A stretch of DNA of 64,000 bases from Bilabrum cf. latius (Eukaryota): contig OZ237773.1 of NCBI GenBank assembly GCA_965178125.1, positions 496,001-560,000 of the forward strand, read 5' to 3'. The notes below the pieces were generated by a model, which made no database searches, had not been told where the DNA came from, and worked only from the letters and a program-made list of their open reading frames with translations. The translations under genes were made by a program, and so were the position numbers. Shown piece after piece: positions 5,285 to 61,530 of the stretch. Position 1 is the first letter of the stretch, and each line of letters opens with the position of its first letter.

Positions 5285-5462
5285 GATGCGCGTCAAATCT
5301 AGCTTGTCCTGATATTTGCAGGCTTCATGCTGGCCGGTTGACGCTTCCGGGTACACCTGCGGATTAAATCAATGTTGCTAGTCATTCGACAATAAAGCAG
5401 GCAAGTGCCCGCGCCCTATGCGTCGTATTTGATTGTATATACTGCAAGCAGGGAGTGCTAGA

Positions 5463-6985: not shown

Positions 6986-7024
<39 letters not shown>

Positions 7025-15619: not shown

Positions 15620-15664
<45 letters not shown>

Positions 15665-19862: not shown

Positions 19863-20825
19863 GTTGAGTCCTTGTGTGATTTCTTGCAAGCGGGCCTGGC
19901 CAATATACCGCAAATCGCTCGCAACCCATTCAGCCCCAGCCATGAAAGAAGCTGCTTTGCTTGCTGGCGCTACAAATATTGATGTACTGCTTGGTATGTA
20001 TACTGCAACAAAGTTCTTTGACCCCCAATCACTATACCGCTACTCCGGCCCGCATTCGCGACGCCTCCCTCAGGCTGCGACCTCAGGCTGCCTCAGGCTG
20101 CCTGCGCACCACTGGCAAGAGCGGTGCTCGCCATGATCCAGTTCCGAGCGGTGCGCTCGCTTTCGCAACCAAGACAACTGGAAGCAAAAGGGTTTGCACA
20201 TTTCCAAAGCACTACCCATTCGCCATGCTGTCAGGGCTGCATTAGAGGCAAAGGCAGCACATCATTCGTTGTAGCATCCATCTCCATCTTGACCCACGCC
20301 TCGTCTCCGTGGTAGTAGCTTTTGATATATCCGTCTGCACCCACATCCACATTTTTGGACTCGCCCAGGTTCACTGTTTTGGTATCCTCAGAGCGGCCCG
20401 CGTCCGCATTGGATCCTGTGCTTTAGTTCGCACCGAACGCACCGCGACGACGATCTTTGCCCCATATAAGTCGGAACTGCCCTTTGTCTCATTTTCGCTC
20501 TTCCAAGTGCCGGAATTCGGTACAAGCTGCAAATAAATAGCGTAGCATATCGTGGTTCACGCACGGCGTGTTACTGGAGACGTGGCAAGAACGCTATGAG
20601 CTTGAAGCGCTGCATACCTTGAGAGACAGACGACGGCGCCATCAATTTCTACAGTGTCAGCCATACTTATCAATTGACTTCATTTGTCAACTATGCCCCA
20701 AATCATGATGCAAGACCATTGCAGTGCTAACCAAGTGTCGTCAAGCCGCCGTTCTAGAACGGCGGCTCCGAATGCGTTTGCGCTCGACGCAACGAAATGA
20801 TCAGAAACGGTGCCTTTGTCACGGT

Positions 20826-23800
20826 ATGGACGGTGGAGCCCGAGACAATAGGAATGCCGAGCAAAAGGCGCGCTCAGCGAGGCTTTTGAATCTAATTTTC
20901 GGTGTGCCAAGGGACATTCACCTTGAGGACTTCTCCTGCGCTCTATACCACGGCCCTGTCCCCAGACAAGGGCGACTATATCTGACCACAACCAATCATT
21001 TGTACTTTTTCAGTAGCGTGTTTGGATCTGAAGTGCGGTTGTCGATCCCGCTCTCACGAGCTACGTCCGTATCAAGGCAGCAGGCGTTGCTGATGGTCCA
21101 AGCTGTCCGTGTCGAATACTGGGACGCGGATGGGCGACCTGCAGTGGCAGTATTTGGCTCTTTTGCATCGAATAGTCGAGATTTAGCATTTGGCGCATGT
21201 CTGCAGGCCTTGTATAGAGCTAGACCAGGGATGAGGCCGGCACCGAAGTCCACCCACTTGGCTGCACCGAACGCTGCCAGTCGACCTGAGAGCGCCATGG
21301 GGAGCAGATTAGTGCAGTCAACCGCTCGATCATCAGATGATGAGTTGTTGAGTACCCCGAAATCGACTGGAATCCGCCTAACGGAAGAGGATGAGGCGCG
21401 CATGGCCTCCATAGCAGGCGCTCTCGAGGCTCTCAAGAAGGGAGACCAGCCTGTGGGCCCGGGGGCTCCTCCCAGTGCTAATGTGAGCGGAGCATCCACA
21501 GATCTCACACCTGGTAGATCAAGTCAAGCCGCACATGCTGACAGTATGGATGGCCAGGAGCCAGACGCGAGAGGCAGGGGCAGGGTGCCACACCGCACGT
21601 CCATGGCGGGCCCCGAGTAGTCAGGGCCTGCATCCCCCGAGCGTGCCTCCTCAGCTGGGTCTGCAGGTGGCTCGGGCAGAACGTTCGGGTCACAGTCGGC
21701 GCAGGTGCTGCGGCGCAGGCGCAATAGGCTGCAGGGGGGTGACGGGTCGAGGAGCAGGCCCGGGGCCGGGGAGGGGGAGGGGGAGGGGTCCTCGCCGCAC
21801 GTGGAGGTGACAGGGTCAGGGTCAGAGACAGGGATGCAGAAACATGGTCAAGAGCATGGGAATGACCTTGACTCTCTCAGCCTCTGGCAGACAGATCTGG
21901 CTCGGCTCTCGGAGGGCGGGGACACTCCCGTTGCATGGAGCAGTCCAGATGGGCACTTTGACAGGAGCTCATCGGGGCCTTTGCTGGCCTCTGGCAGCGG
22001 GTCGGGCATGGGAGATGCTGCTGGTCCAAGCGCCAAGCCAGCGAGGGCCCAGTCGAGTGTGCTTGGAATTGAAGCCGGGGCTGGCACTCAGCACCAGCGT
22101 CTGCGTGCAGGCACCGCCGCGGCCAGTCTGCAGGCGGCCGGTAGGGTCGGTCTGCTGGAGCCGGGTGGGTAGGAGGCCGAGGAGGAGGGTGGGGGGGAAG
22201 TGAGACGAGGTGGAGAGGAGGATGTAGATAGGAGGGGAAGAGGGGTCGAAGCGACGATGGCTGCCGGGACAGGTGGCAGTGGGGATGGGTCTAGGCCGGT
22301 AGGGCTGAAACGGGGGCAGGATCCGGGACTGAGTCTGGAGCGAGGGGCCAGGCATGCCTCTGAAGTAGAGGAGGCATGGCTGCCCGAGGCACCCGCGGGC
22401 CTGGCTCACAGTGCGCTGCAGGACATGCGCATCATCTTGGACGTGCGCCTGCCGCTGCACCCCTCTTGCGTGTTCCCCGAGTTCTTCGCGGATGATGCAC
22501 CGTCGGGTGCGGCTGCCTTTCACAGGTATCAGGGCAACATCACGGACCTGGTGGTGACCCCTTGGGTGGACGAGGCCTCGTGGAACAGGGAGGGGGAGGG
22601 GGAGGGCGAGGGGGGCGAGGGGCCTGCGCTACCACCACTTTCGTCGGCGGGTGCTGCTGCAGCACCAGGTGGGGCTGGAGCTAGTGGGGGCGCGCCCTCG
22701 CCCTCCACCGGTGAGCTGCCCTCCCACACGATGGTCCGGTCTACATCGTACGTGATGCACCTCAAGCCCGGGTTCATGCTGCCCAAGAGCACGCGGGTGG
22801 AGAAGACCTGCCGCGTGCAGAGGTTCAGGGGAGGCGTCCTCGTGGTGGAGCACCAGGCCCGCTCGCTGGATGTGCCCTTCGGTGATCTCTTTGCCACTGT
22901 CGACCGCTGGATCGTGGAGCCGTGTGACCCAGAGGGTGGAGGCGAAGGGACGGCTGCAACAGGCAGTGGCAGTGGCAGTGGCAGTGGCAGTGGCAGTGGC
23001 AGTGGCAGTGGCAGTGGCAGTGGCAGTGGCAGTGGCAGTGGCAGTGGCAGTGGCAGTGGCAGTGGCAGTGGCAGTGGCAGTGGCAGTGGCAGTGGCAGTG
23101 GCAGTGGGGGGTCCTGGGTGCGGCTGCGGGTGGGGAACACGGTTCGCTTCAGTTCCTACACCATGTTCCGCGGCCAGATCGAGTCCCAGTCCACCGATGG
23201 ATTGCGGGAGTACCACGAGCAATGGGCCGCGTTTGCCAGGGAACAAGCAAGGGAGGCACCTGAGCGCATGCGGCAAAGGGAGGCGCCGTGCATGCGGCAG
23301 CTGACGCGGGAGAGCAGTCACGCGAGCAGTCTCGCTGGCTCGCTGGTGCCAGGGGGTGGCGCTGGGGCTGGTGGGCCTTGCCCTGGTCAGCTCGACCACG
23401 ACCGGTCGCACAGGGCAAGTGCGGCGGGAAGCGAGTACCTGGAGGGGCCCACTGCCGCTGCGGTGGAGGAGGAGCTGCGGCAGGCGGCTCGGGAGGACAG
23501 CCGGGGCAGCAGCTTCGACTCGGAGCGTGGCTTGCACGCAGTCATGGGGGATGCGCGAATGGGGGCTAGAGCAGGTGGTGGTGGGCCTGCCTCCATGCAG
23601 AGCGCAGGGGTGTCGGGTCAGGCATCGGCCCGCGAGGGGCAGTCCAGGGAGAGCTCTGGTCCCAGCCTCTCGCGGTCCGTCCTGCCGGTCCCTGCGTGGG
23701 CGATCCTCGTGGTGATGGCGCTGCTATGCGGTTTCTTGGCGGGATACCTGGTGGGCAGGCAGGGAGGCGGTGTAAACGTTACTACTGCCGGCGGCGATGA

Positions 23801-23873
23801 TAATTTAGAGGCGAGGCTCCTCGAGAAAATGCGGCAGGAAATGCGGGCCCTGGTGGGCAAGCAGAGCTCGTGA
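20826..23873 (+). CDS. GRAM + VASt (StART-like) + C-terminal TM protein (GRAMD1/LAM-like lipid transfer protein)
   Basis: GRAM EDFSCAL...QGRLYLTTTNHLYFFSSVFG; VASt DVPFGDLFATVDRW and FRGQIESQS; C-terminal TM. TAGs at 21618 and 22170; ends TGA. Alternative start 20772. Confidence 0.85.
22962..23106 (+). repeat. Perfect (GGCAGT)n microsatellite, ~24 units, encoding (Gly-Ser)n
   Basis: Visible in the sequence, inside the VASt region. Confidence 0.97.
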
Positions 23874-29487: not shown

Positions 29488-32400
29488 TCAGTTGTCCACT
29501 TCCGGGATCATCTCATCCAGCTCCTGCTCCAGCTGCCTCATCTCCGCGGAGGAGGGCCGCAGGCTAGGCCCGTGTGCAGCCCGCTAGGCCCTAGACGAGG
29601 CCAGCGGGCGGGGCCGCCGCTGCACCGGGCTGCTCAGCGGCGTGGTGGAGGGACGTCCCGCTGCCGGACCACTCACTGCTTCCGCTGCCTCTGCGGCGCT
29701 GGCCATCCCCTCTAGCGCGAAGCTGTCGTCCAGCGACACCCCCCTCCCACCCCCACTGCCACTACCAGACTCGCTATCACCCGATTTCGAGAAGCCCCCC
29801 ACCCCTCCCCTAGGCCCCTGCCCCGCCAAGGCAGCGAGTAGATCAGCCTCGAGCGCACCTGCTCTCCGCCGGGCCTGCGACGGAGACAGCCACCGGTGGC
29901 GGGGCCTAGAGCGGCGGCTGTCCCCAGCATTAGCACCCGCAATTGCGCCCAAATTGGCACAGCCCGAATGCGCAGCATCACCGGCACGGCTATCCGCGCC
30001 TGGCTCCAGACCTTGCCCTTGGCCTTGTCCTTGGCCTTGTCCTTGGCCTTGCCCTTGCCCCCGCCACTGACCCCGCTCGCGGTCGATGCTACCAACGGAA
30101 GCTGTCACGCTGGCTCGACTGGAGAGATGTGGGCGGTTCGCACCTCCGTGCAGTGCACCCGCGCCCCCGCCCCACCTGCGGTCGGCATGCTCTCGGGCTC
30201 TGTCCCCGTCTCCGGCAAGCAGCCCCGGCCCCATGCCTGTCCCTGTCGCATCACCATACGGAGGGATTTCCCACGGGAGCCTGCTGTGCCTGTCCATCAC
30301 TCCCCCCGGGCGCAGTCTCAGCGCTGCCTCCCCCAGCACCTGCACCGGGGAAGCGGGTGTATCCGTGTCAAATGCAGCCGAAAGCATGGCCATGTCCTCC
30401 GGAGACAGCCACGAGGCAGGGGCGGACACACCCCCACCCAGGTCCTCTCCCCCTCCCTCTCCCTCTCCCTCCTCCCGGCCCCCCTCCAGTTCCACATCTC
30501 CATCGCTGAGAGCATCCCCGCGAGCCCCTTCACCTCCATCGCGGCCCCCCCCCTCCCCCTCCCTATCCATCTCCCCGCCTTGCTCCCGACTGGACCTTCC
30601 GCTGCTGCCAGTCGCGAACCTCACGTGGAAGTCCGCCCTCTTCCTCCGCTGGATGGCAGAGGAGGCGCTGGACCTGGACATGGACATGGCAGAGGGGGCT
30701 CGGGAGGATGCGCTGCCCTCGTGGCCTTGACCTTGACCTTGACCTTGACCATGTTCAAGCGCCTTACCATCCTATTCATCCTCGTTTCCTGCTTCGGCCC
30801 CGCGCTCCTCGTGCTAGCTGCGATCCACCCTTCGCATGTCCCCGTCCCCCGAGGACCCGGAGTCCCCTTCAGTGAGGACACCCCCCCACCCCGATCCAGC
30901 CTGGTACATCGCAGCGGCCAGATGAGGAGGCTGCCCCACGTCATCGGCAGCCCCTCGGTCCACTGGGTCGAAGGCCAATCGGCCCCTGCCCCCCCCTGCA
31001 GGTCTTCCTGGCGGCCCCTGCAGCCCTCGAGGCACCGGGTGTCCATCCTCCGCACCGCCATCCCGGCTGTCGTCACCGTGTCCCGAGTTCGAGTCGCTGT
31101 CGCTGTCACTGTCGGTGGCCTCGTCATCATTACCACCCTTGTCTTCATCTTCATCTTCGTCATCGTCATCGTCCTCAAGAGCGTCACCATGGGACCCAGC
31201 AGCCCCCACTGAGGTCCTCCCGTCCTCGTCCTCGCCCTCGCTGTCCTGCTCCCGGTCCGCAACGGTGGGCAGCAGCCCGACGATGCCCCCTGCAACCGAG
31301 CCCCCCTTCTCCTTCTCGCTGCCCCCCACGTCCACCCGTCCACCATGACCTCTCCTGGCCCCACCGGCCCTCCCCATCGCGCCGGTCTTCGTGCCCTGCT
31401 TGCGGCGCTTCTACGCGAAAGCAGCAGCTGACCCCGTGCCCCGGCGCGGCCTCCACCCGAACCGAGGCCGAGTGCCTGTGGTGGCGGAGGCGCCTCCCCC
31501 GCTGCCACTGCCGGGGGCTGGTACCTCGCGCCCTGCCCCGGAACCCGCCCTGCCAGCCACACCGGTCTATGCGACTCCTGCCTGTCTATCCTCTTCCCCC
31601 CCCCTCCCCTCCTCGTCGTCGTGTCCCTCTCCACCTGGGCCCGACCCAGCGCTCAGGCCCTCGCTGAAGGACCGGGGCCTTCGCCTCTATCCCCGCCCAA
31701 TCCCACGACCCGCCCTTGCCCTTGCCCTTGCCTGCGCCGCAACCACAGAGGCAGATGGACCCACATCATAGTCCGTGTCTGCGTCAGTCGGTACATCGCT
31801 CTCCCCGTCGTGATGGTGCTCCTGATTTCTACCCCTCTCATGGCGCATGCCCTCACTCGCTGGCACACCGTCCAGCTCCTATCCGATGCCTTCACCCTCC
31901 GCCTCCACCTCACGGATGCGTCTCCCGCGACCCACGTCTGCATCGCCCACCACCCCAACCACGCTGCCACTCGCGCTCCCATTCCCACGCACGGGCTGGT
32001 GCGGGCCGGGGTCTCTCAACCGGTGTGACGAGTGCTACGCAGAGTCCCACCGGATCCCCCGCATCCTGCCACCTCCACCGGCGATGCCAGCCGGGGATAG
32101 ATCCACGCCCCCCTCATTCTCACCACCATTGCCATCTTCCACATCCTCCTCGCGCGCGCTGCCCTGTAGCCCAGGACCGCCCGCTGCCCCGGGCATCTGC
32201 CGCAGGGACGGTGACGGTGGCCTGGCCACCACAGAGGCCACCTCCACGTGTGACGCATCGTCCGCCACATCCCCCTCGACGTCCCCTCCTCCATCGCTGG
32301 TCCCCGCACCCGCCCGGGGCACACTCCCCACAGATGCTGCCTCCCGCCGGCTCCCCACAGCGGGCGAGAGAGCACCCCCCCCCTCACGGGACCCTCCACT

Positions 32401-33456
32401 CCCCCCCCTCTCTTCCATCCCATTCCCAGTGCCCGGATCCCCCGCATGGGTCCCCGCCGCAGACCGACTCCCCTCTGTCCTCGTCCCCAGCGTGGACCTG
32501 TCCCCGGCACTGGAGGCACCCCCCGCAGACCGCGCCCCTCCCCGGACACCCCCACCCCCTCGCGATCGAGGTGCAGGACGAGGAGGATCCACCCCCGCCA
32601 CTCCCAGGCCGGGCCCACGGACCACGCCTGGCCGCCGCCCCCCTCGCCCGGGTTCATCCACCCCGCCCCCCGCCCTCTGCCCCGCCCGCCCCCGCTGCTC
32701 CTCTGGGTCCCCTTCATCGCGCTCCCCCGCGCGGATCCCCGTCGCGTCCAGCAGCCCCCCCGCGCTCACCACCGGAGGCCGCACGCCGCCCCGCCCCGAG
32801 AGCGCCTCCATCCTCGCCGATGCGTCCTCCTCGTCGTCTCCGTCCACGGCCAGAGTGGAGCCCGCGTACTGAGAGCTGGCGCTGCCGCTGCCGGCGCGCC
32901 CAACAAGTGCAGTGCTCGGCTGGCCAAGGTCAGGATGTGCCCCTTCCTCGAGTTCACGAGCGGCTTCGGAAGCGTCATCATCGCCGTCTGTGGAAGGGGC
33001 TAGGACGGATCGGTCCCCCGCTGTGACCGCCACCGATGATGCGCTGCCGATGCCTCGACGCGATGCCTCGAAACCCTCATCGCCGCCAGGATCGGACGAA
33101 TCGTCCTCGAAGCCGACAGAGCTCTGGCCAACACTATTTGGTTGCGTAGACCACCGCCCGCTTACAGGCACGCGGCCATTCACGGGCGGCTCGGGGTTGC
33201 TTCGGAGCGCCCTGGACCTGGCTCGGAGAAGCCCGCTGAGGGTTCGATTTTCTGGGCCACTCAAACGGGCAGATGGTGGCATACGACTTGCATTTCTGGA
33301 CGGCTGTCGCCCGTCAGTGCTTTGGATTGCATCACCAGAGCCAATCGAAGAGATTGTTGCGCCTAGCTCTGAAAAGGCGGAGGCTGAAACATGCCCACTG
33401 CGGTGGAGATCACGAAGCTTCGAAAGCAGGTCACTCAGCTAAATATTTTCATCCAT
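29488..33456 (-). CDS. Uncharacterised low-complexity Gly/Arg/Asp-rich protein, 1322 aa
   Basis: One frame from ATG 33456 to TGA 29488-29490, interrupted only by 9 TAGs; head-to-head with CCT8. No recognisable domain. Confidence 0.6.
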
Positions 33457-33602
33457 TGCGAAGTGGCACCTCGCTCGGCCACCCCCACGGCCGACAGTAA
33501 ACCGTGGAGCGACCCAAGCCCGCTCTTGGTTCCGCTAGATTGCGCGGCAACAGTTCGAAATCATGCGCGCCGGCCGCATACTCGGCTTCGCGTGATAGCA
33601 CC

Positions 33603-35466
33603 ATGGCGGGCAAGATGCGCATGGGAATGAGATAGCCCGGTATGACCGGATTGTTGAAGGATGGGTACAAGCACATGGAAGGACTGGAAGGTGCCATCTT
33701 GAAGAATGTAGAGGCGTGCAAGAAGCTGTCTGGCATTACCCGGACCTCCTTGGGACCAAACGGGATGAACAAGCTGGTGATCAACCACTTGGAAAAAATA
33801 TTTGTTACGAGTGATGCGGCAACTATTGTGCAGGAGCTGGAAGTGCAGCACCCCGCAGCGAAAATGTTGGTCATGGCAGCACAGATGTAGGAAAACGAGG
33901 TGAGATACACGGCTCAGCGGGTTTCCCGAGGTGTGCGGCGCGCGCCCGCACGGGCCTATTCAATACGCCATCTTGCCAAGCACCATACATTTGAGTGACG
34001 CAGGTAGGTGATGGCGCGAACCTTGTGGTCACGTTTGCTGGCGAGTTGCTTTCTCAAACCGACGAGCTTCTTCGAATGGTGAGCTAAACCAAGCATGAGG
34101 AACCACTGCATGCACCGTGCGAACTTGTGCCTGTCACACCGCCTTCTATGTTACGAGTCTGCCTATATTATCCCTGCAGGGAGTGCACCCCAGCGACGTT
34201 GTGACTGGATACCGGGCGGCTGCCGCCAAAGTCATGGAGCTGCTCCCGTCCCTCAGCACAGTTGATCTCGGGGAGGACGACGTCAGGGATCCTGCCAAGC
34301 TGGCCGTCCCGTTGCGCAGCGTGATCGCCGCCAAGCAGCTGGGCCTGGAGGGCGTGGTGGCGCCCCTGGTGGCGCAGGCATGCGTGAACGTGATGCCGGC
34401 CAAGCCCCGCAAGCCGTCGATCAACATCGACAACGTGCGCGTGGCGAAGATCGTCGGCGGCAACGTGCGGGACAGCCAGGTGGTCCGCGGCATGGTGGTG
34501 CTTCGGGACGCGGAGGGCACGATCAAGCACGTGGAGGGTGCCAAGGTGGCCGTGTTCGGGGTGGGGCTGGAGGCCTCCGAGACGGAAACCAAGGGGACGG
34601 TGGTGCTCAAGTCCGCGGAGGAGCTCAAGAGCTACACGGACGGCGAGGAGGCGCGCATGGAGGCCTCCATCAAGGCCATCGCGGACTCGGGGGCCACAGT
34701 CGTGGTGAGCGGGGGCAGCATCAGCGAGATCGCGCTGCACTACATCGAAAAGTTCGGTCTCATGGCGCTCAAGATCGTGTCCAAGTTCGAGCTGAGGAGG
34801 CTCTGCAGGGCCACTGGAGCCACCGCGCTGGTCAAGCTGGAGGCACCCACGGAGGCGGACCTGGGGCGGGCGGACGTGGTGTCGGTGCAGGAGCTGTCTG
34901 GGAGGAGGGTGGTGGTGGTGCGGCAGGACGACGAGGAGAGCGCCATCAGCACCATCGTGCTGCGAGGCGCGACCACCAGTCTGCTGGATGACCTCGAGAG
35001 GTCTGTGGACGGGGCCGTGAACGCCGCTAGAAACCTGTGCAGGGACGGGCGCTCCCTCCCAGGCGCGGGTGCCACCGAGACCGCGCTGGCCCTCAAGCTG
35101 GCCGAGTTCGCGGGCACCAAGACGGGCCTGGAGCAGTACGCCATCACCAAGTTCGCCGATGCGCTCGAGGTGGTGCCCCGCACCCTGGCCGAGAACTCCG
35201 GCCGGTCTGCCACGGAGACCATGAGCCGATTGTTCGCGGAGCACACGGCGGGCAAGGGGGCCCAGGGCGTGCTCATCGACCCTGAGTCGGCGGAGGCCAC
35301 TGTGGACACGGAGGAGGAGGCCATCCACGACGGGTATGCCGCCAAGGAGAGCGCGCTCAAGCTTGCGGCTGACGCTGCTATCACTGTGCTGCGAGTCGAC
35401 CACATCATCATGAGCAAGCAGGCGGGCGGACCCAAGCCCAGGGCTCCGGGGCCGCCCGACATGTGA
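33603..35466 (+). CDS. CCT8: Chaperonin CCT theta; exons 33603-33899, 34004-34078, 34180-35466
   Basis: TRTSLGPNGMNKLVINHLEKIFVTSDAATI, MAAQM(TAG 33888)ENE|VGDGAN, SKFELRRLCR, VDHIIMSKQAGGPK. Second TAG at 33633; ends TGA. Confidence 0.97.
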
Positions 35467-35682
35467 GCGCCTGGACGCGGCCTATCTTGGCCTCATATTG
35501 GAGAGAGGGAGGGAGCATGCCTCTGCATGTTCGTTGCAGTGTGATGAGTGAGGTGCCAAAACAAGATGAATGCAGAATGCAGAATGCAGAATCGGCTGAA
35601 ATAACGATCATGCATAAAATCACCGTATTTGTCTCTCTCTCCCATCGGATGACTGAAGCTAGCTCCGCCCTTGAACACCCCT

Positions 35683-35860
35683 GGGCACCTGCCTCCCCGG
35701 AGCGAGAGAGCTCAGTTGCCCTCCATGGGCACCTGCCTCCCAGGAGCGAGAGAGCTCAGTTGCCCTCCATGGGCACCTGCCTTCCAGGAGCGAGAGAGCT
35801 CAGTTGCCCTCCATGGGCACCTGCCTCCCAGGAGCGAGAGAGCTCAGTTGCCCTCCATGG
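35683..35860. repeat. Tandem repeat, 4 x 44 bp, overlapping the HGD stop codon
   Basis: Unit gggcacctgcctcccaggagcgagagagctcagttgccctccat starts at 35683, 35727, 35771 and 35815. Confidence 0.95.
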
Positions 35861-37594
35861 GGTACGAGGCCTCCATGCCGGCAGACGCGGAGGAGGAGGA
35901 GGCAGGCACTGCGTCTGCCTTTGTCAGCGGCACTGCCACCACCCCGCTGGCACCGCCAGTAGCTGCCCCAGCACTGCTGCTGCTGCTAGAGGCCTTGGCT
36001 GCCTCCTTGACGTCAACGACCTTGACGTCAGGCGCGGCGGGGTTGAAGAGCTTGGGCACGGCAGCCCAGCACTTGGGGTAATCCATCTCCCTCTCGGGTG
36101 CCTCCAGGGCCCGCTTGGTGAGGGTCATGATGTACGTGGTCTCGAACATGAATGCGAGGCCACCAGAGAACCACTCGGGCTCGAGCTTAGCCTTCGAGGC
36201 ACCAGCGAATGTGGGCGCGTCCGGGCCATGGGCCGACATGCACGAGTGCAGGGAGGAGCCCCCGGGCACGAAGCCCACCTTAGCGTCGTACTTGCCGTAG
36301 ATCATGCCCATGTACTCCGTCATGCAGTTGCGGTGGTAGTACGGGGGCCTGAAGGACCGGTGCATGGCCATCCAACGGGGAGGAAAAATCACGAAATCCG
36401 CCACTGCCACGCCCGGTGTGTCGCTCTAGCACGTGAGCACCGTGTAGATGGACGGGTCCGGGTGGTCCACCGTGACGCTGTTCATGCACACGAATGCCTC
36501 CAGGTCGTACTTGTATGGGACGTAGTTGCCGTGCCAGGCCACGACATCGTAGGGAGAGTGCCCCTGCGTGTACCGGAACATCTTTCCTCCGAACTTGACC
36601 CTCACGGCCCACTCCACGCCCTCCCCGTCCTCGTCCTCGAAGCTCGCCACGGGGGTCAAAAAGTCCCTGGGCTGGGCCAGCCCGTTGGCACCGATGGGCC
36701 CCAGGTCGGGCAGCTGCAGGTGCCCCTGGTGGATCTCCAGCACGTACCCGCGGGAGGGCCCGTCCACGTCGATGGAGAAACGCATGCCCCGGGGCAAAAT
36801 CAGAATCTCCCTCGGCTTCACGTGCAGCCGGCCCGTCTCAGTCGTCACACGGAGGTCGCCCGTCTACGGGACCACCAGCATGTCTCCGTCCGAGTTGTAG
36901 AAGGAGCGCTTTTGAGGGGTCATGGAGGCTGCGCATGCGTACAAGTACACAGCCAGCCCCGACTTTGCCTTGGCAGACCCCGCCCCTGCCATGGCCGACA
37001 GGCCCTGGATGAAGTCCACCTTGGCATCGCTGGCGGGCAGAGCCTGCGGCTGCCAGCGCATGCGCTCCGGATGCACAGCCTCGCTCTCAAAATCGGCACA
37101 AATCCCATCGTGCTTGTCCTCCACCATGGGCCCGTGGCACACGCTGGGGCGGATGCGATACAGCCAGACTCTCTAGTTGCTCTTGCGAGGCGCCGTGAAA
37201 GCTGTGCCCGACAGCTGCTCCGAGTAAAGCCCGTAGGCGCACTGCGATTTTTATTTAAGCTCAATGAGAAGTACACAAAGTCCAGAACATTGATGGCGTG
37301 GGTTTCCTACAGCGTTCGAGAGTGCTGTGACTTGGTGTTGATTGCTGCACATCTTACAACTTGTGGGCTGTTCTAAGCTTTGGGAAGCGCGCCAGGGAGT
37401 GCCTCCGAGGCGTGCTCATTCCCAAAGCCAGAAATATACTTCAGACCGCCGTCTGTAACGTGGCCGCCATCTCTGGTCTCCCGTCCCCTGGAAACACCGG
37501 CTGCTGCTGACAGAGCGCCCGTTTTCTCCGGAGCTTCCGTCATCTCGACGCGTGCCCGCTTCGCTGGTAGCTCTCCTGCTCCACTAGCTGCCAT
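35844..37594 (-). CDS. HGD: Homogentisate 1,2-dioxygenase; intron 37242-37357
   Basis: YISGFGNEHASEALPG, EQLSGTAFTAPR, WLYRIRPSV, VVAWHGNYVPYKYDL, DFVIFPPRW, FRPPYYHRNCMTEYMG, LAFMFET. TAGs at 37373, 37173, 36864 and 36426; ends TGA. Confidence 0.97.
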
Positions 37595-37699
37595 ACTGTA
37601 AGGAAACAATGAGCAAAAGAAGCTGGAACAACCAGAAACTGCAAGATTCGACGAACACCTGGCCAAGCCGCCAAACTGCACGTTATAAAAATCGAATGT

Positions 37700-39450
37700 G
37701 CAGTGCATTGTGAGGAACTTTCGTGGTTTGGTTCGATTTTTTTTCCCACGTGCAGCATATTTGAGGCCACTCGTAGAGCCACTTTCCATCATTTAAGCCA
37801 CAATCTATCCACAGAATTGTTAATATCAACTATATTTACATCTTATCACGGCACTAATATTGATGCTGCGCAGATCGAAAGCGTATTTCTGGACCAGCCA
37901 GTAGGTCCTGCCCTGGGCGGCAAGATCGCTGTCCTGTACATGAACATTTTGTCCCTCTAACCCGCCTACAACACATGCAATATTCTCATAGAATCAAATG
38001 GGGCGCTGCATATTTACCGCATCCGGATTTTAGGCTCATAAATGGACCAGCCACAACTGCTTCTCCAAACTGCAATCGCGTACCTGTAGCTCTAATAGAA
38101 GTGTTTCTACACTAAATGACCATCTCGTGGAGATATTTATATACTTTAAAATAAATCGTGCCATCATGAAGTGATTTGCTTCATACGGCGTCGCTTTTCA
38201 AGGCAATGATCGACCTGCGAGATTGAACTCTATGCTGCTGTCTAGCGCATTCATCTTGTGTCCAGCAGACTCATATTGCAGATATATCGATAACTCAGAG
38301 TATATTTCGTCATATTAGATCTACAATGCACCATTGTACGGTCCAGCTGGTGAATTCAGAGTGAAGTGGTGACGATTTTTTTGGCTGTAGCTGCCGTCAA
38401 ATAATCGATATTGGGTGTAACACCAGCTAATTACATAAATAAATAATATTTAAGTTGTATTATGCCAATGATTATCACGTGTAGGCCTTCAGAAGCACTC
38501 GAGGGTGGTGTCCAGTGTCGTCGCAAGGATCCAGTGCTCCGACCGGATGTCCAATAGATGGGCCACATACGGATTAAATGGCCACAAAATGGATTTGCAT
38601 GCTTATTAGCTACAGCAATTGGGGATGCAGTAGTCGGTGATACAAGTATGTGGTGTGCAAGCGGTAGATTATTTGAAGTGTCGTACTGGCACGAAGTCCC
38701 GATTTCTACCAAACAAACGGCACATTTCATATTATGGCCATCGTTGTGGTATGTAAATACTAACATTATACCTATTCAGCATAACGTAAGATATTTTACT
38801 GTAACGTGAATCGAGCAATACACGATTGTCCATCTTCATACAGCCACGCCAATCTCGTTGTTGTCTTCGAAATATGATTCATTTACTCCCACACTGCCGA
38901 GATTATGAATAACTAAGTACATTTCTTTAGTTTGGTGGCAGCGATCATGCACGTCACGTTTGGAACTGCAGTATGTGCAGCTCCGGTTGCAGATCAGTTT
39001 CAGCCGAGCCGCGTGCGTAGACTAGCACCTAAATTGAGAATGATATGCACAGTCTGGCGAGCTTCCTGTATTGCAGAATACATGAATATATAGCAGAGCC
39101 GATAAATTCATCAGTTTAAGGCTGGATACTTGCATGAACTCAACCGGGGCTTGCGCGGTGCCATGGGTTCAACCAAGCCAGTCATAGGTGCTATGCAACT
39201 GAAAGTTGCCAAACCCACATTTTTATATCAATATATACCAGATGGGACAGAAGGAATTTCGACATCGTCAGAATCAAGCAGCCCATTGGCGCCTATGCTA
39301 TTTGTTCAAAAAGCTCCAGCGTACTCACGCCATATTTCTGGACACAAACAACACGAAAGCCAGCGCAATAAATAAATACGTCATATTTAATTTCATCTAT
39401 AGCAGTTTTGGCGATGAACTGTCACTGTTGGTCGGGTGAATTGCAAAACG
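37700..39450 (-). mobile_element. AT-rich island, probable decayed Ty3/Gypsy LTR-retrotransposon pol relic
   Basis: Abrupt GC drop and stops in all frames. Minus-strand remnants in Gypsy order: RWTIVYCSIHVTVKYL (end of RNase H region), HANPFCGHL (integrase zinc finger), EGLHVIIIGI..KYYLF..ATAKKIV (integrase core). No LTRs seen. Confidence 0.4.
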
Positions 39451-39567
39451 GGGGATTTTTCCCGGGATTTTTCCCAGACTGGCACAACCTGACGAGTGCC
39501 TGTGAACCGGTCCTGGCTGATCTGCTGATGGCGCAAGCGCGAAAATCACATGCAAAGCAAACTATGA

Positions 39568-42500
39568 TTACTCCAGCGTGGCCAGGTGCACTGCAGCCCC
39601 CAGGTGCGCCGAGTCATGCTCCCGCAGCACCGCCTCCAGGTCCCGCCTGGCCGCGTCCTTGCGCCCGAGCCCGGCCTGGCCGAGCCCCCGGAGGAACTTG
39701 CATAGGCAGCGGTTGGCCGCTCCCAGGTCGGCCTCGAACACGAGGAACTCGGGCAGCGACACCGCGAAGAAATCGATCTCGGGCCTGTCCCCCTCGTGGT
39801 TGTCTCCGAAGTCAACCAGCCCCTGGAAGCTGCGCCGCGCCCCCGACTCGTCCCCCAGGGCCCTCCTGGCCAGCCCCTGGTAGAACTGCATCTCCGGGGG
39901 CTGGTCGTTGTAGTACATCTGGCCGCCGCTCACCTCCTCCTTCCCCTCGGCAGCCCGCCCCAGAGCCGCCCTCGCCTCCTGCTCCTGGCCCAGCCCACGG
40001 AGCGCCATGCCCCGCAGGTAGTCCACCACGTTCTCCCTGTGCCCCGGCAGCTTGCCCTCGCCCAGACTCTCCGGCCAGTGGTCCGTCAGCGCCAGCAGCT
40101 CCAGCGCCCGCCGCATCCCGGCCTTACCCCCCTCTTTCATCGCCTCCCGCGCGAGCCCCGCCACGGCCCACGTGAACTGAGCGGGTACCTTGCCCTCGCC
40201 CCCCTCCCAGGGCCTGAACTGCCGGCTCAGCACCAGGTCCAGCGCGTCCTGGTGTCTCCCCAGCCGGTTGAGCAGCGAGACCTGCTCCACGCACAGGTCG
40301 TCTCTCGAGGAAACCAGCGATGGGTGCTGCTGCAGGCGAGCCAGTCTCGTAGCAGGTGCCTCCTTGCGGCGCTTGGCCAGCTGGTCCAGCTCAAAGAGCA
40401 CACGCGCGTCATTGGGCGCCAGCTAAAAGGCCTTCTTCAGGCACTTCCACCCGGCCTCGTCGTCCTTGCTCACATTCACGAGGGCCAGTCCCAGGTTCCT
40501 GTGGGCCGTGGGCAGGCCCTCAGGGTCCCTCCTCACGGCCTCCCTCCAGCAGGCCATGGCCTGGTCCTTCTGCAGCCGGTCCATCCACAGGTTGCCCAGC
40601 TGGTACGGGGCCCGCCCGTCCTCGGGGCTCAGCCTCACGGCCTCCTCCAGCACCACCACATCCTCGGTTTTGTTGGGGAACACGGCCCCAACGGGGGCGC
40701 GGGCAGCGGCCTTGAGTTGCACATCCGCACGCTCCTCGAGCCCCGCCTCCCGCAGCACAGAGGCGAGGTGGTACCGCACCAGGCCCTCTGCATCTGCAGC
40801 TGCGGGCTGCACGAAGGGGGGCAGCTCGCCGCCCGTGCCCCTAGCGCGACCAGGCCCGCCGCAGTGGGAGTCCACCCACATCTCCAGCACCCGTGCAGCT
40901 GGGCCCAGCCTCCCCGCGGCCCTCAGGTCCAGTGCAAGCTCCGTCAGCGAGTTCCAGTCCATGCGGGACCTGGCCCTGAAGGTGGCCCAGCTCTCCTCCC
41001 CGGCGCTGCACAGCTCAAACAGCACGCCAAGGTTGAAAGGGTCCCTTCGGAGCTCCTTGCGAGCCAGAGCCAGGGCCTCCTTGCGCTGATCGGGAGAACC
41101 CGCCTCTAGCAGAAGCGCCACCAGGAGGTGCGTGGCGCGCCCGTTGTTCGAGTTGCGCTCCAGGCACATGCGCGCCATCTCCATCGCGTGCTCAGCGGGG
41201 GTGCAGGGAACAGGGGGGTCGCACGCCCCGCGAGCCGCCAGCCGAGCCAGCTCCAAGTAGGCGGGCTCCTGCCACGCGCTGCACCAGGCCGCCTTCCACA
41301 GGGCAGCCATAGCCTCTGCCTCCCGCGCGGCCCTCTTGGCGCTGCTCTCGCCCTCCAGCCGGCTCCTCTCCAGCCGCTGCTGGATGCATCGCCCCAGCAA
41401 AAAGTGGGCCTCGCCCTCTGCAGGGTTCCGGTTGTGCCTCGTCAGGCGGGTCACGGCCTGCCGCAGCAGAGGCTCTGCATCCCCCGGCCTGCCCCTGCGC
41501 ATGAGAAGCCGACCCAGGGCGGTGTTGCAGCGGCTGTCGCCGGGGTCGCGCCGGAGGGCCTCCCGGTAATACGGCTCCGGGTCCCTGGTGGCGTGTCGGT
41601 ACTGCTCCAGGTGCTGCCCAGCGAGGTAAAGGTCCTCCGTGGAGCCCAGGGTGGAGGGAGGACCGATCGGGCGGGCGGCATCGGGGGTGTCCGCGAGAGC
41701 CTTGGTGGGGTCCACGGCGGTGGCCTGCCCGGGGAGGGGCGCATCGGTCGGCTTGGGGGAGTAGGCCACCAGTTCCCGGCCTGCTGCCAGCACGCGCACT
41801 TCCAAGGCATCCTCGCTGGTGCCTGCAGGGAGGCTGGCAGTTGACTCGAAGGGGGCGGCGGGTGTGGCCCCCTGCCAGACCTCGTCCATCAGCACCTTCC
41901 CGGTGGTCCCGTCCTTGAGCTCAACGCGCACCTCAGGGTGCGACGATGTCACGTGCGCGCGCACCGTGGCTCGCCTGCCACTGCCCTTGCCCTTGTTCCC
42001 GGTGCTCATTTCCAGTCCAACGCAGGCCGCTGCAGTCGCGTTGGCCAGCCGCCCCACCCCTCTGTACGGCATAAAGTACTGCGTGAATCTCTTCTCCTCC
42101 CCGGGCTGCAGGAACGTAAAGTCCGGCTGGTTCACGGTGAAGCAGCCGCACATGAGCTCAATGTACGGACCATCCGCGTCCGTCAGGTGCCTGTCCCAGG
42201 CCCTCCCAAAGTCCGCGTGCCCCCAGGTCCACTGCTTCTTGCCCGGGGCCACGTGCCTGTTGGCCACGTGCAGCAGCCCCGCCTGCTTGCCGTGGTCGTA
42301 GGCGCCCACAAAGTTGTAGTCGCTGTAGTAGGCCATGTAGCTGGTGGGCACAGGCACGTTGGCATATCTCGAGATGTCCGTGCCCCCCCCCGGCGCGGGC
42401 CCCTCCGAGTAGTCTATCTTGTAGTACTCCCCCCTCGCGATCGGGAAGGTGCTCACGTCTCGCTCACCGTGGTCCATCACGGCCGTCACGTCCAGCGGAA

Positions 42501-48654: not shown

Positions 48655-49746
48655 TCAGCCGTCGATGTCCTCCTCCTCATCTGCCTCCATAGCAGCATCC
48701 CCTTCACCACCGCCAGACGCAGCCTCGGCCAGTCGCCGGCCCTCTGCCACCGCATGCGCCAGGTTCTCTGGGGGCACCATGGAGAAGGCCCCCGGCTTGC
48801 CGTCCTCGCCAAGCTTGATCCACGCCATCTCCACCTCCATGGGCTTCTCCTTCGAGTCGTCGTGCACCGTGTGCAGCATGCGCGATACGTCAGTGAGGGC
48901 CTCCTCCGATGATTTGCTCCACAACTTGGCCTTCTCGACCTCGGTCTTGCACGTGCGGGCCCCCTTCCCGATGGCGATCCCGAAGAAGCGGTGGTACGTG
49001 CCATCCACCTCCACCATGTACAGCTCCCAGCCAGACGCGCTGCCGTCGGCGCCCTCCTCGCCAGCAGCAGCCTTCTCGGCATCGTATCCTGCTATCAATA
49101 CCTGGGCACCGAACGGCCTGTATCCCCCGCTTGTGGTGTAGGCGTACACCACGTCTGCGAGCTGCTCGGCTAGCATCTTGGGCGGGACTGGCTCGCCCCA
49201 GTTCTTTCGGTGGCTTGAGGCAATCCGCTGGGCGTATAGAACAATCGATCTAGCATCTCCTGCCAATCCCGTGACAACCAGTCCGACGTGCTTGTCGATC
49301 GCAAAGCATCGCCTGTCGCTGCCCTTGACAAGCAGGCGCGATACCCGAAGTTTCTCCACACCCAGCACAACCCCATCTGTGCATCTCACGCCAACGGCAG
49401 TCCTGCAGACTTGAAAATGGTACAAACCAGACGTGCTCATGCTAATAATTACGAAAGGAAATCGTGAATTTTGGATGATGCTCGCTTTGGTTAGATGCTG
49501 GTACATCGAGCTTCCTACAAGAATCTCACCCCGCTGCGTCCACTGCTTTCTGTGCGTATTCCAGCTAAATCACCTTTCCCTCGGGTGAAATCACATTGGT
49601 CGAGTAATCATACTGCGGTGGAAGGCAATCAAGCAAAGTGCTGGCTAGGATTTCAAGTGAGACTTGAGCACAGCTCATTCTTCATGGCACAAAGAAGCGG
49701 GTTGAGAAACCTGTACTATTCTTACTCCTGCGGCTGTACTGGCCAT
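48655..49746 (-). CDS. PSMA3: 20S proteasome subunit alpha7; exons 49746-49726, 49612-49530, 49402-48655
   Basis: MASTAAG|YDYSTNVISPEGKVI(TAG 49565)LEYAQKAV|GTAVGVRCTDGVVLGVEKL, YRPFG, AIGKG, HDDSKEKPMEVEMAW; ends TGA. Confidence 0.92.
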
Positions 49747-49976: not shown

Positions 49977-52900
49977 ATGGACTTCGGTGCAGCAGGAATA
50001 ATCGCTTTGCTGGATGAAGAGGACGAGCAGCTCCAGGTAAGAACGCGATTCAAGTTGGAGCCGGGCGTGGCACTTGTTTTTACCGGACATGGTCGCATGC
50101 GCGTAGCCGATCCCAGCAGTTCATAAATCATTTACTACGGTCTGTCTCCGTGGTTTCATGAATCTGGAAATGTCGCAGGTGTTTGCACTGCGCAAGCTAG
50201 CAACGGTGATCGACCGTCATTGGGCCGAGGTATCCGATTGCCTCCTGCAGATTGAGGAACTGAGCGAGACGGACGGATTTGATGGAAAGCAAATTGCTGC
50301 TTTTGTGGCGTCGAAGTGCCACTTCCACCTGGAGCAGTACGAGGACGCCTTGCGGTTCGCGCTGGAATCCGGCAATCATTTTGACGTGGCAGTCAAGGGC
50401 GATGAGTTTGTCGACTGCATGGTCGCCCAAGCCATAGATTAGTACGCTACCCTCAGAAAAGCGGCTGCATCGGATCCTGATGATGCTGCCCCAATCGACG
50501 CCTCGCTCGAGCGAGTGGTCAACAGCATGTTTGAGCGATGCCTGTCCGATGCTGCCTTCGAGCAGGCGGTCGGCATGGCGATCGAGTGCCACCGCCTCGA
50601 TATCATTAAGGACGCCGTGACTCGGGCTGCCGCCGGAGACACCCGCGCGAGCCAGGAGCGGGCGGAGGCGCTGCTGCGGTACTCGTTCGACCTCTCCCAG
50701 AGCAAGGTGCCTGGCCGGGCTTTCAGGCAGCAGATCGTGGAGGCTATCACGGAGCTGCACCGCGCACAGGCCTCGGTGGACCACCTGGCCCTGGTGCGGT
50801 GCCTGGAGGCCCTCGGGGATGCCGACGGGATCGCAGCCCTGCTGGTTGGGCTGCTGGGGGCCCCTGAGGAGGACGAGCGGGCGCACCTGGTGGCCTACCA
50901 GATCTGCTTCGACCTGGTGGAGGACGGAGACCAGCGGGTGCTGGCTGCGGTCAGGGGCGCGCTCCCCGACAAGCAGGGGACCCAGGGGGGTGGGGATGGA
51001 TCCGCTGGTGGAGAGGGCGAGGAGGGGGGTGCTGCGGCCGACGGGGGTGCGGAGGGGGAGGCAGCGGGGGATGCAGCAGCAGGAGATGGGGCGGAGCCTT
51101 CGGCTGCAGTGGCTCGCGCGACGGAGGGGGTAGACCTGCCCGCTGATAGCAAGGCGCCCGTGTATGACCGCTTCCGGTAGGCGAGGTCGATCCTGAGCGG
51201 CATCGAGTCGCTGCGGCTGCACCTGCACGTGCTGCACAAGCTCAACAACGCGGACCCGCTGGTGCTGCAGCGCATCAAGCAGGCTCAGGAGAGGTTCAAC
51301 CCTGTCACGCACCAGGCGTCCTTCGGGGCACACGCGATCATGTACTGCGGGACCACCTCGGATAGGTTTCTCCGGGAGAACGTGGCGTGGATGGGCAAGG
51401 CATCCAACTGGAGCAAGTTCGCCGTGGTGGCCGGCATGGGGGTGGTGCACAAGGGAAACGTCGAGTCGGCCCTCACCGTGTACGAGCCATACCTCCCCAA
51501 CCCCGCGCGGGGGGGAGCCTCCAATCCGTACGAAGCAGGCGGTGCCATGTATGGCCTGGGTCTAATCTTCGCCAACTGCGGCGGGACGGGCGTGGGAGGC
51601 ACCAAGCAGAGGCTGCTGCAGGAGCTAAACAGCAGCGTGCACACGATGCAGATGCAGGCGTCCCATGGAGGCGACGCACCGGGAATGCAGAACGGCGGGC
51701 TGCCTGGACATGTGAGAGATACGCGCACTGACTCTAACTTTCGCAGGTTTGGTTAATCGTGCTTGTCATGGCTTTGGTGTGGATTGCCCCGTGACGATTT
51801 CCCGTTTGGGACGATTGCATTGCCGAAGGCCCCTCGGGGCCTGCTGCGGATCTTCTCACTGACGTCTTCTGAGGGTTGTTTGTGCTGCTCGCGAGCTCGT
51901 TGGTCACTTGAATGCGTTGTGGATTGCCCCGTGACGATTTCCCGTTTGGGACGATTGCATTGCCGAAGGCCCCTCGGGGCCTGCTGCGGATCTTCTCACT
52001 GACGTCTTCTGAGGGTTGTTTGTGCTGCTCGCGAGCTCGTTGGTCACTTGAATGCGTTGTGGATTACCCCGTGACGATTTCCCGTTTGGGACGATTGCAT
52101 TGCCGAAGGCCCCTCGGGGCCTGCTGCGGATCTTCTCACTGACGTCTTCTGAGGGTTGTGTGTGCTGCTCGCGAGCCGTTCGATTCCGCTTTGATTCCGC
52201 TTTGCCGGTAATCATGTATTATGTCCCTTATTCTCCTGCTTCCATCTCGCAGCAAGTTGCCCACGGTGCCTGCCTGGGCCTGGGTCTGGCGTGCATGGGC
52301 ACGGGCGATGCCGAGTCTCTCGAGTCCTTGCTGGCAGTTGCCAAGATGGAGTCTGCCACCGCAGGGGAGGCAGCCGGATACTCGATGGGGTTGCTGCTGG
52401 CCGGCAGCGGCATGTCGAGAGACCTGACTGGGCATGATGCTGGGGCTGGTGAGCCCACGGCTCGCGAGACTCTGTTAGATCTGGCGCAGCGCACGAGCCA
52501 CGAGAAGGTAACCCGCGGGCTGGCAGTGGGCCTGGCCCTCTCTTGCTACGGCCGGGAGGACGAGGCAGATGCCTTCTTGGAGCAGATGACCTCGCACAAG
52601 GACCCCATGATCCGGTACGGAGGCATGCTTGCCGTGGCTATCGCGTACAGCGGCACGGCAGACCGCACGCGCGTCAAGCAGTTGCTGCACGTGGCTGTCA
52701 GCGACGTGTCGGACCAAGTCAGGCGAGCCGCCGTGATCGGCCTCGGGTTCTTGCTGTGCAGGCAGCCCGAGCAGCTGCCGCCTCTGGTCGCTCTGCTCGC
52801 GGAGTCGTTCAACCCCCACGTCAGGTACGGTGCCGCCATGGCCACTGGGATCGCGTGCGCCGCCACAGGCATGCCTCAGGCCATGGCCCTGCTGCAGCCC

Positions 52901-54224
52901 CTGCTAGACGACAGCGTTGATTTCGTGCGTCAGGGCGCCTACATCGCAGGTGCCATGGTGCTGCAGCAGGAGAGCGAGGCGCGCACCCCGCAGGTGAAGG
53001 CATTCCGCGCTAAGATCGCCAAGGTATCTGCAGATGCAAGGTTGCACCCCACCATGGCGCGCGTGGGTGCTATCCTTGCTTCAGGTATCATCGACGCAGG
53101 AGGCAGGAACGCCTGTGTTGGACTTCGGTAAGTCGCTGTGGCCTGACATGTGGCTCTGCCGCAGTTCGCCTGTCCATAGCTTGCGATTGCATGGCTGGGT
53201 TCATCCCTTGGTGCTGCCTTCCGCTCTCAAGATCCCCATCGCTGCTTTTGCTTCTTCCCTCGCTCGCAGTTCTAGGGCGGGTTTCCAGCGCATGCCGGCC
53301 GTGCTGGGCATGGCGCTGTTCGTGCAGTACTGGTACTGGCTGCCGCTGACCCACTGCCTCTCTCTGGCCGTGCACCCCACGGCCCTCGTGGGGCTGCACA
53401 AGTCCCTCAAGATCCCCAAGTCCTTCCAGGCAGAGTGCCTCTGCAAGCCTTCGCTCTTCGCATACCCCGAGCCCCTGCACGTGAAGAAGGAGGCCGAGGA
53501 CAAAAAGGTGGAGGTCGTGGAGCTCTCTACCTCGGCCAAGGCCAGGGACAGGGCCAGGCGGAGGGCGCAGCGGAAGAACAGGGACGGGGCCGGCTCGGAG
53601 ATATCCACCCCCTCGGGCAAGGGCAGGGCCCCCTCGGCGCTGACCCCGCTGTCGGACTCGGGGCGGGGTGCCTCGGGGCAGTCGCAGGGGGACGAGGGGG
53701 GTGCAGCGCAGGGTGGTGCTTCGCCTATGAAAGGGGGTGACGAGGACGAGGGAACAGGCGCTGCCGCTGGTGCGGGGGCCGGGGACGAGGGCGAGGACGG
53801 GAAGGGGTCATCAAAGGGCAAGCAGGGAGGCAAGGACAAGAGCGGGAAGGAGGAGGCCCGGTCCTTTGCGCTGACCAACCCCAGTCGTGTGACGTTGCCG
53901 CAGCAGCGCTTCGTGCGTTTCTCGCAGAAGGGCAGGTGGGTGCCGGTGCGCAAGGACGCTTCTCTCAACCTGGGCGCCGTAATGCTGATGGACCAGGGCA
54001 AGGCGGCGGCCGGGACGGGTGCTGCGGCTGCAAGCGACGGCTCCGCCAAGATGGAGGACGGGGCCGATGCGACCGCAGCTGCTTCTGGGAGCGGGAAGGT
54101 GGAGGAGGAGGAGGACGACGATCTCGAGGAGGTGCACGTCCCGCGGCCGGGCGAGGAGGAGGAGAAGGACTACGAGGCACCAGCGGAGTTCGTGTGGGTG
54201 GTTGGTGACTACGTTGACTTCTAA
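49977..54224 (+). CDS. PSMD1: 26S proteasome subunit Rpn2; exons 49977-50036, 50179-51711, 52253-53127, 53270-54224
   Basis: AAGIIALLDE, GTTSDRFLREN..W..KASNWSKF, LLHVAVSDVSDQVRRAAV, ESFNPHVRYG, QYWYWLPL. TAGs at 50440 and 51178; ends TAA. Confidence 0.96.
51778..52176 (+). repeat. Intronic tandem repeat, 140-bp unit x ~2.9, candidate box C/D snoRNA array
   Basis: Period 140 (51781, 51921, 52061). Each unit has GTGACGA...CTGA with short complementary flanks. The repeat is certain; the snoRNA call is tentative. Confidence 0.9.
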
Positions 54225-61279: not shown

Positions 61280-61530
61280 TGCTTCGGGATAGCCCGGAAG
61301 ACTAGGTTCGTTCGAATTCGAATACGAGCTACTGGTAATCCAGCGCTATAATTGGAGTTTAAAGAGTACCTGCTGGCAGTTCCAACGCGGCGAAAATGCC
61401 TTGGCTGAGCCTGATGACGCAGGGACCGGCAAAATCTGGGGGCTGGCCGCCTTTGAGCGGCTGTGACGATTAGGATCCGCAGGCATCCAGACCAGACGGA
61501 CTGACGGACTGATCAGATCGACTGAGCAAT

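Follow-up and report, generated by a model that had tools for sequence, protein, structure and literature searches.

What does TAG mean in a gene that carries four such triplets in frame? The question is raised by a homogentisate 1,2-dioxygenase (HGD) gene located on the minus strand, at positions 35844..37594 of a 64,000-nucleotide stretch of contig OZ237773.1 (hereafter the window, which denotes the whole stretch). A preliminary description of this DNA had proposed that the four TAGs were recoded sense codons, probably for glutamine (Gln). Our analyses suggest that the gene encodes an intact, functional HGD that is 543 residues long and in which positions 74, 101, 204 and 350 are Gln. They also indicate that the nuclear genome to which the window belongs very probably reads UAG as Gln while keeping UGA and UAA as stops, a code of the NCBI table 15 type.

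The HGD gene consists of two exons and one intron. Exon 1 (37361..37594, minus strand) comprises 78 codons from the ATG at 37594-37592 and holds the TAG of codon 74. Exon 2 (35844..37241, minus strand) comprises 465 codons followed by the TGA at 35846-35844 and holds the TAGs of codons 101, 204 and 350, giving a coding sequence of 1632 nt (543 codons plus the stop). The intron between them (37242..37360, minus strand) is 119 nt long, which is not a multiple of 3, and is bounded by GT..AG. Residues 52-78, translated from exon 1, matched positions 1-27 of the Pfam profile HgmA_N (PF20510), and exon 2, which was delimited using its translation, Pfam and human HGD, matched positions 29-273 of the 273 (348.4 bits against a cut-off of 20.2, E 3.4e-104). 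The splice junction is therefore fixed, the profile being continuous over it (27 to 29). The second domain, HgmA_C (PF04209), was matched over profile positions 2-151 of 153 (221.6 bits against a cut-off of 21, E 5.4e-66), and both domains were complete, with scores over the curated cut-offs. The motifs and splice sites that the preliminary description had called intact were thus found to be so, and the four TAG coordinates that it gave corresponded to the lowest base of each codon, all of them in frame on the minus strand.

When the integrity of the gene was considered, the HGD frame contained four TAGs and neither TAA nor TGA, whereas the other two frames contained 14 and 5 TGAs, indicating that the frame has not decayed. 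The GC content of third codon positions (GC3) was 0.84, against 0.49 for second positions (GC2). Together with the 79% identity to a relative described below, the intact frame and this base composition would indirectly disfavour neutral evolution of HGD. Among PDB structures, exon 2 matched the human enzyme (1ey2, E 2.2e-142), that of Pseudomonas putida (3zds, E 1.9e-127) and 9pz4 (E 9.3e-105). The window gene shares with the first two the HgmA_N plus HgmA_C layout, in an alignment that spans residues 1-402 of the 465 encoded by exon 2. The alignments to 1ey2 and 3zds had no gaps at any of the three exon-2 TAGs, which are therefore not hidden in mini-introns; tiny introns spanning each TAG were ruled out because the alignments were ungapped at each site. 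The stretches PPYYHRNCMxE and HGPD, which probably contain the His/His/Glu iron ligands, were identical in human HGD and in the window gene. Compared with the human and Pseudomonas enzymes, the window gene differs by about 50 additional N-terminal residues, by a low-complexity C-terminal tail of about 60 residues, which is also found in its closest relative (P0154), and by the four UAG-encoded positions. No second, TAG-free HGD copy was found within the 64-kb window; the question of such a copy is moot, since TAGs occur in essentially every long gene nearby. Two overlapping open reading frames (ORFs), one of them antisense to HGD on the plus strand (35373-37376, 667 aa), were considered and rejected; they had no Pfam match and were regarded as shadow ORFs of GC-rich coding DNA. 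We also observed that the end of HGD lies in a 44-nt tandem repeat (35682..35861; 4.1 copies, 97% matches), which spans the final codons of HGD (PMEGN) together with its TGA stop and the beginning of the 3′ flank. As a result, the stop and the coding sequence of the C-terminal pentapeptide are present in several tandem copies.

We then scored the residues found in homologues at the positions of the four TAGs. The TAGs were replaced by X and the HGD protein was aligned to two homologue sets, the 150 best cluster representatives from a search of 1.84 billion proteins (set 1) and the 120 best matches of a word-indexed search (set 2). Codon 74 (LPKAxNSPQ, 37373..37375, minus strand) corresponded to Gln in 96 out of 112 sequences of set 2 and in 55 out of 94 of set 1. 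Similarly, Gln was found at codon 204 (MLVVPxTG, 36864..36866, minus strand) in 109 out of 120 and 90 out of 136 sequences, respectively, and both P0154 and human HGD carried it. These are the two positions at which a strongly conserved Gln had been anticipated. Codon 101 (KSNxRVWLYR, 37173..37175, minus strand) lies in a variable column, with 50 Gln, 16 Leu, 12 Lys and 10 Arg among 117 sequences of set 2 and 29 Arg and 19 Gln among 98 of set 1. At codon 350 (VLTCxSD, 36426..36428, minus strand), set 2 presented 63 Pro and 42 Gln out of 120 and set 1 presented 87 Pro and 7 Gln out of 134. Gln was consequently the commonest residue of set 2 at three of the four columns, and second after Pro at codon 350. 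When log2-odds were summed over the four columns in this set, using a small pseudocount, Gln reached +16.7, followed by Lys (-5.7), Met (-8.7), Pro (-9.3), Arg (-9.4), Leu (-10.1), Glu (-10.3), Ser (-13.6) and Tyr (-18.4), so that it led all the others by over 22 bits. Column scoring against HGD homologues had been set beforehand as the test of recoding; it favoured Gln, and the opposite outcome was not seen.

The nearest relatives carried Gln also at codons 101 and 350, though across the family at large these columns vary or hold mostly Pro. The HGDs of Aphanomyces and Cafeteria each presented Gln at three of the four TAG columns. The closest relative, P0154, was identical to the window protein at 343 out of 434 positions (79%). 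It covers the columns of codons 204 and 350 and had Gln at both, within local motifs identical to those of the window gene; at codon 350, Gln in a matching motif was also present in P0155, from Aphanomyces. The lead of Gln over the four columns, the two Gln out of two in P0154 and the full length of the gene sustain the proposal that the HGD TAGs are recoded sense codons, probably for Gln. The predicted P0154 protein begins at the Met that matches the first Met of the window gene after the TAG of codon 101, and its contig of 1809 nt has room enough for the missing N-terminal 116 codons. Such a start would fit if the relative, like the window gene, had a TAG in frame further upstream, and the organism from which P0154 comes may share the UAG reassignment.

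Regarding the context of the HGD TAGs, the preliminary description had stated that the flanking bases differed at each site. This was correct for the 5′ base (T, C, G and C) and incorrect for the 3′ base, which was A at all four. This A was considered as a possible read-through context and rejected, because the base that followed 80 in-frame TAGs across the window (the +4 base) was distributed as after all codons, with A in 17% of the cases. Nothing therefore suggests that the reading of TAG depends on context, and the A shared by the four HGD sites is probably due to chance. The proportion of TAG among the Gln-type codons of HGD (4 out of 14) was not unusual when compared to that of the window (11.6%; binomial P 0.07).

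The same signal was present in many other genes of the window, in line with the earlier suggestion that HGD would serve well to test whether the recoding is genome-wide. With the standard code, no ORF exceeded 918 aa, while reading through TAG produced ORFs of 3007, 2037, 1415, 1203, 1054 and 1023 aa; reading through TAA lengthened hardly any. The window has a GC content of 62% and contains 203 TAA and 421 TAG occurrences. Within 18,040 supported codons, frame 0 held 83 TAGs and no TAA or TGA, and the two off-frames of the same ORFs held 126 and 116 TAGs, 51 and 38 TAAs, and 294 and 333 TGAs. According to their Pfam matches, the long ORFs comprised an FG-GAP repeat protein, a DUF5107-TPR protein, a GRAM-VASt protein, an amino-acid transporter, a K+ channel, a glycerate kinase and RPN2. 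The smaller ones comprised CCDC47, two E2 enzymes (UBC_a and UBC_b), a syntaxin, an SGL protein, CCT-theta, mS6, ERp29, proteasome alpha and GPDH. At least 11 TAGs were located inside Pfam-matched stretches of seven genes, namely four in HGD, two in glycerate kinase and one each in CCT-theta, ERp29, mS6, CCDC47 and RPN2.

The TAG of CCT-theta (TCP-1 theta) that is located at 33888..33890 on the plus strand (AAQMxENE) provided the clearest column outside HGD. Gln was found in all 65 aligned homologues, near-full-length sequences chosen from 120 matches, as well as in the mammalian CCT-theta chains of PDB. Additional evidence came from the FG-GAP repeat protein. This gene (8969-17992, plus strand) is a single ORF of 3007 codons with 18 in-frame TAGs, and its product combines three internal repeats of about 450 residues, some 35-50% identical to one another, with linkers rich in Ser and Pro; a long tail comes after an apparent transmembrane segment. 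When the protein was cut into 250-residue pieces and the repeats were compared at about 50% identity, two out of five TAGs stood opposite CAG in a paralogous repeat, and the others opposite Ala, Ser and Thr. Altogether, TAG accounted for 83 of the 717 Gln-type codons in the window (11.6%), with CAA and CAG in a ratio of 124:510, and thus behaves as a rare, minority Gln codon. Its use was uneven. The long low-complexity proteins carried many TAGs, unlike exon 2 of CCT-theta (34099-35463), proteasome alpha (48658-49569), GPDH (54630-55652) and the middle and C-terminal part of RPN2 (52052-54221), whose ORFs were free of them. We suspect from this distribution that TAG may be avoided in highly expressed genes.

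Several observations weigh against the assignment of UAG to Gln or limit what can be drawn from the data. Half of the HGD columns lack specificity for Gln, codon 101 being variable and codon 350 being Pro more often than Gln across the family. Likewise, a second TAG of CCT-theta (codon 11, near the N-terminus) falls in a variable column with 25 Pro, 14 Gly, 10 Ala and 2 Gln. The TAG columns of RPN2 and glycerate kinase were occupied by Glu, His, Lys or Asp in distant PDB homologues, which is compatible with Gln and not diagnostic of it. A homologue search with RPN2 returned no match at E ≤ 0.001, low-complexity words apparently dominating the candidates. That TAA and TGA are completely lacking in frame is in part a circular result, because these two codons served to bound most ORFs; homology set the limits of HGD and CCT-theta, and the circularity does not extend to the ORF lengths. 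As for the decoding machinery, neither a tRNA gene (ARAGORN) nor an Rfam family was detected in the 64-kb window, and the Pfam matches of its ORFs included no eRF1 domain. Finally, the recoding is deduced here from genomic DNA.

Alternative explanations were weighed against this evidence. The closest to UAG as a Gln codon is a dual meaning of UAG, sense and stop, which would refine that assignment rather than contradict it. In its favour, a sample of 64 kb is small, and the ORF at 55766-61876 presents TAGs at codons 2021 and 2033 of its 2037, near its end. However, among 19 supported gene ends the next in-frame stop was TGA in 16 and TAA in three (UBC_a, RPN2 and DUF5107-TPR), and none of the 19 needed TAG as terminator, a count from a single window in which the C-termini are fixed by homology for few genes. 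In those set by Pfam (CCT-theta, matched up to profile position 489 of 490; UBC_a, 139 of 140; UBC_b, 138 of 140), the stop, TGA or TAA, followed a few residues further on and no TAG lay close by. Specifically, TGA followed 15 residues past profile position 489 in CCT-theta, and TAA followed 7 residues past the end of the Pfam UQ_con match in UBC_a. Considering also the unbiased base after in-frame TAGs, a dual meaning seems improbable on this sample. Another option is that UAA and UAG both encode Gln (the UAR code, NCBI table 6), TAA being rare merely because of the high GC content. This would agree with the statement by McGowan et al. 2024 (PMC11687900) that the two codons usually change meaning together, and TAA is indeed about half as frequent as TAG in the window. 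Yet, from the CAA:CAG ratio, around 20 in-frame TAAs would be expected among the supported codons if TAA were a Gln codon, and none was observed next to the 83 TAGs, while the off-frames contained dozens. Since TAA read-through barely extends ORFs and TAA ends three of the supported genes, we regard the UAR code as very unlikely.

It is even less likely that TAG is translated as another residue such as Glu, Lys, Leu, Tyr or Ser, all of which have UAG or UAR precedents in other eukaryotes. The residues found in distant homologues of RPN2 and glycerate kinase would fit this explanation, and so would HGD codon 101, which is Lys in human and Arg in Pseudomonas. In contrast, the summed HGD scores of Lys, Glu, Leu and Tyr are all negative against the +16.7 of Gln, the conserved CCT-theta column is invariably Gln, P0154 has Gln at both columns that it covers, and CAG stands opposite two TAGs in the paralogous FG-GAP repeats. 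We give a comparably slight chance to an editing of the mRNA from U to C, which would turn UAG into CAG and leave the code itself standard. Editing predicts the same Gln at every site, and DNA alone cannot separate it from recoding. It would nevertheless have to act on TAG only, as a general system would tolerate in-frame TAA (edited to CAA) and TGA (edited to CGA), both of which are absent. Besides, the P0154 protein starts at the first Met after the codon-101 column, as a surviving in-frame stop would produce. No nuclear U-to-C editing system of such kind is known. The least likely explanation of all is that HGD is a pseudogene or that its TAGs arose by error during sequencing or assembly, for example through C-to-T damage at CAG. 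Four nonsense codons would certainly inactivate HGD under the standard code, but the gene presents no frameshifts, no TAA or TGA, two full-length domains, a GC3 of 0.84 and 79% identity to a relative. TAG interrupts essentially every long gene of the window, 83 times in total, including essential genes of single-copy type (CCT-theta, RPN2, CCDC47 and mS6), and C-to-T errors would also have yielded TAA (from CAA) and TGA (from CGA), none of which occurred in frame.

With UAG as a Gln codon, decoding could operate as it does in other eukaryotes that have reassigned UAG (Panek et al. 2017, PMC5304391). In that case, UAG and not UAA would be read by a tRNA-Gln whose anticodon is CUA; it would derive most simply from tRNA-Gln(CUG) through one anticodon change and would be charged by glutaminyl-tRNA synthetase. 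An eRF1 with weakened UAG recognition would complete the change (PMC5304391). UGA would then be the terminator at most gene ends, and UAA would also terminate.

Next to HGD lies the CCT-theta gene (33501-35466, plus strand), in convergent orientation with HGD (35844-37594, minus strand). Its gene model requires one more small exon, somewhere in 33900-34176. The Cafeteria counterparts of the two genes, CCT-theta (FNF27_02830) and HGD (FNF27_02835), are located on the same contig of 645,921 bp, five locus tags apart, which suggests that the linkage may be conserved between the two organisms. On the other side of HGD, the approximately 2 kb that separate it from the DUF5107-TPR gene (37600-39500) contain no long ORF in any frame, and positions 38001-40000 have the lowest GC content of the window (0.49 versus about 0.62 overall). 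Many of the window proteins carry long dipeptide or simple repeats (GQ, SG, GK, poly-Ser, and Asp/Glu runs) encoded by microsatellite-like DNA, for instance at 5433-8504, 20709-23873 and 29488-33735. In addition, a direct repeat of about 430 bp occurs in two copies (215-639 and 2387-2840), which are 95-98% identical in four collinear blocks with a spacing of about 2180 bp, have matching six-frame translations and flank a minus-strand ORF of 606 codons (663-2483).

Regarding the affinity of the organism, the best named HGD matches were those of oomycetes (Aphanomyces, 64%), Rhizochromulina and Cafeteria. For the 428 residues of CCT-theta exon 2, the closest among 120 retrieved homologues were the four Cafeteria sequences, at about 60%. 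A FastTree analysis of CCT-theta with 91 rows (the query plus those of these 120 matches that had 500-620 residues, which left out two of the four Cafeteria copies) placed the window sequence as sister to Cafeteria (SH-like 92), inside a clade that also held Pythium (99). This is a tree of one gene, made by a quick method and with a taxon sample biased by how the matches were found. The organism thus appears to be a stramenopile whose nearest named relative is Cafeteria, a distant one. Cafeteria presumably uses the standard code, since its proteins have been predicted normally. Halocafeteria, at 46.8% GC, is not a match for the 62% GC of the window.

The assignment of UAG alone to Gln is a known but rare code, and its use in the window organism is very likely real. 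Iotanema, Protocruzia and two phyllopharyngean lineages are named as cases in PMC11687900. In the full-text literature, whose coverage leaves out most subscription journals, our searches gave no description of a stop codon being reassigned in a stramenopile or bicosoecid nucleus; the mentions of genetic codes that were checked there concerned mitochondria, other taxa or entries in reference lists. It is conceivable, with a chance that we place slightly below even, that the window provides the first nuclear stop-codon reassignment in stramenopiles and an independent origin of UAG-only to Gln in a GC-rich lineage for which Cafeteria is the closest named relative among the databases searched. If so, this would be a young and phylogenetically bracketed reassignment with culturable, sequenced relatives, suited to studying how UAG becomes decoupled from UAA. 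Changes of the nuclear code are rare, and rarer still when UAG parts from UAA. An additional independent case would make it possible to test whether GC content favours the capture of UAG only and whether a single tRNA-Gln(CUA) plus an eRF1 change suffices; the window contributes a GC-rich genome, TGA as the main stop and Cafeteria as a presumably standard-code comparison. In practical terms, an annotation with the standard code would truncate or mis-splice a large share of the genes and cut HGD into pieces of fewer than 200 residues, so that table 15 is needed.

Among the known systems, the closest counterpart is Iotanema spirale (Fornicata), in which UAG encodes Gln and UAA is kept as a terminator (Panek et al. 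2017, PMC5304391). The window shares with it the codon, the amino acid, UAA as a stop and a non-ciliate protist host, and in Iotanema too the code was deduced from in-frame UAGs at conserved Gln columns. The Iotanema case is built on transcripts (PMC5304391) and ours on genomic DNA only. In addition, Iotanema is an anaerobic metamonad, whereas the window organism appears to belong to another supergroup, its CCT-theta grouping with Cafeteria and Pythium, and possesses an HGD that depends on O2 as well as a ribosomal protein S6 of mitochondrial type. Iotanema uses UAA as its main stop (PMC5304391), while TGA dominates in the window (16 out of 19 gene ends). The same assignment (NCBI table 15) is found in the phyllopharyngean ciliates Hartmannula sinica and Trochilia petrani and in Protocruzia tuzeti (McGowan et al. 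2024, PMC11687900). In these, 58-70% of the inspected internal UAGs were at conserved Gln positions, a share comparable to that of the HGD and CCT-theta columns. They differ in that UAA was the terminator in 93.5-100% of their C-terminal alignments (PMC11687900), whereas the window is stramenopile-like, with 62% GC and TGA as the main stop. UAG has also been decoupled from UAA, as in the window, in the non-ciliate nuclear genomes of the rhizarian exLh (PMC5304391) and Scotinosphaera (PMC11687900), to which Leu and Ser were assigned, respectively; at the HGD columns these residues scored -10.1 and -13.6 bits, against +16.7 for Gln. Finally, UAR encodes Gln (table 6) in many ciliates, hexamitid diplomonads, Streblomastix, ulvophycean green algae and Amoeboaphelidium (PMC11687900). 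These codes resemble that of the window in reading UAG as Gln, presumably by a tRNA-Gln derived from CAG or CAA readers, but UAA is a sense codon in them, whereas in the window TAA was found in frame not once, against 83 TAGs, and ends three genes.

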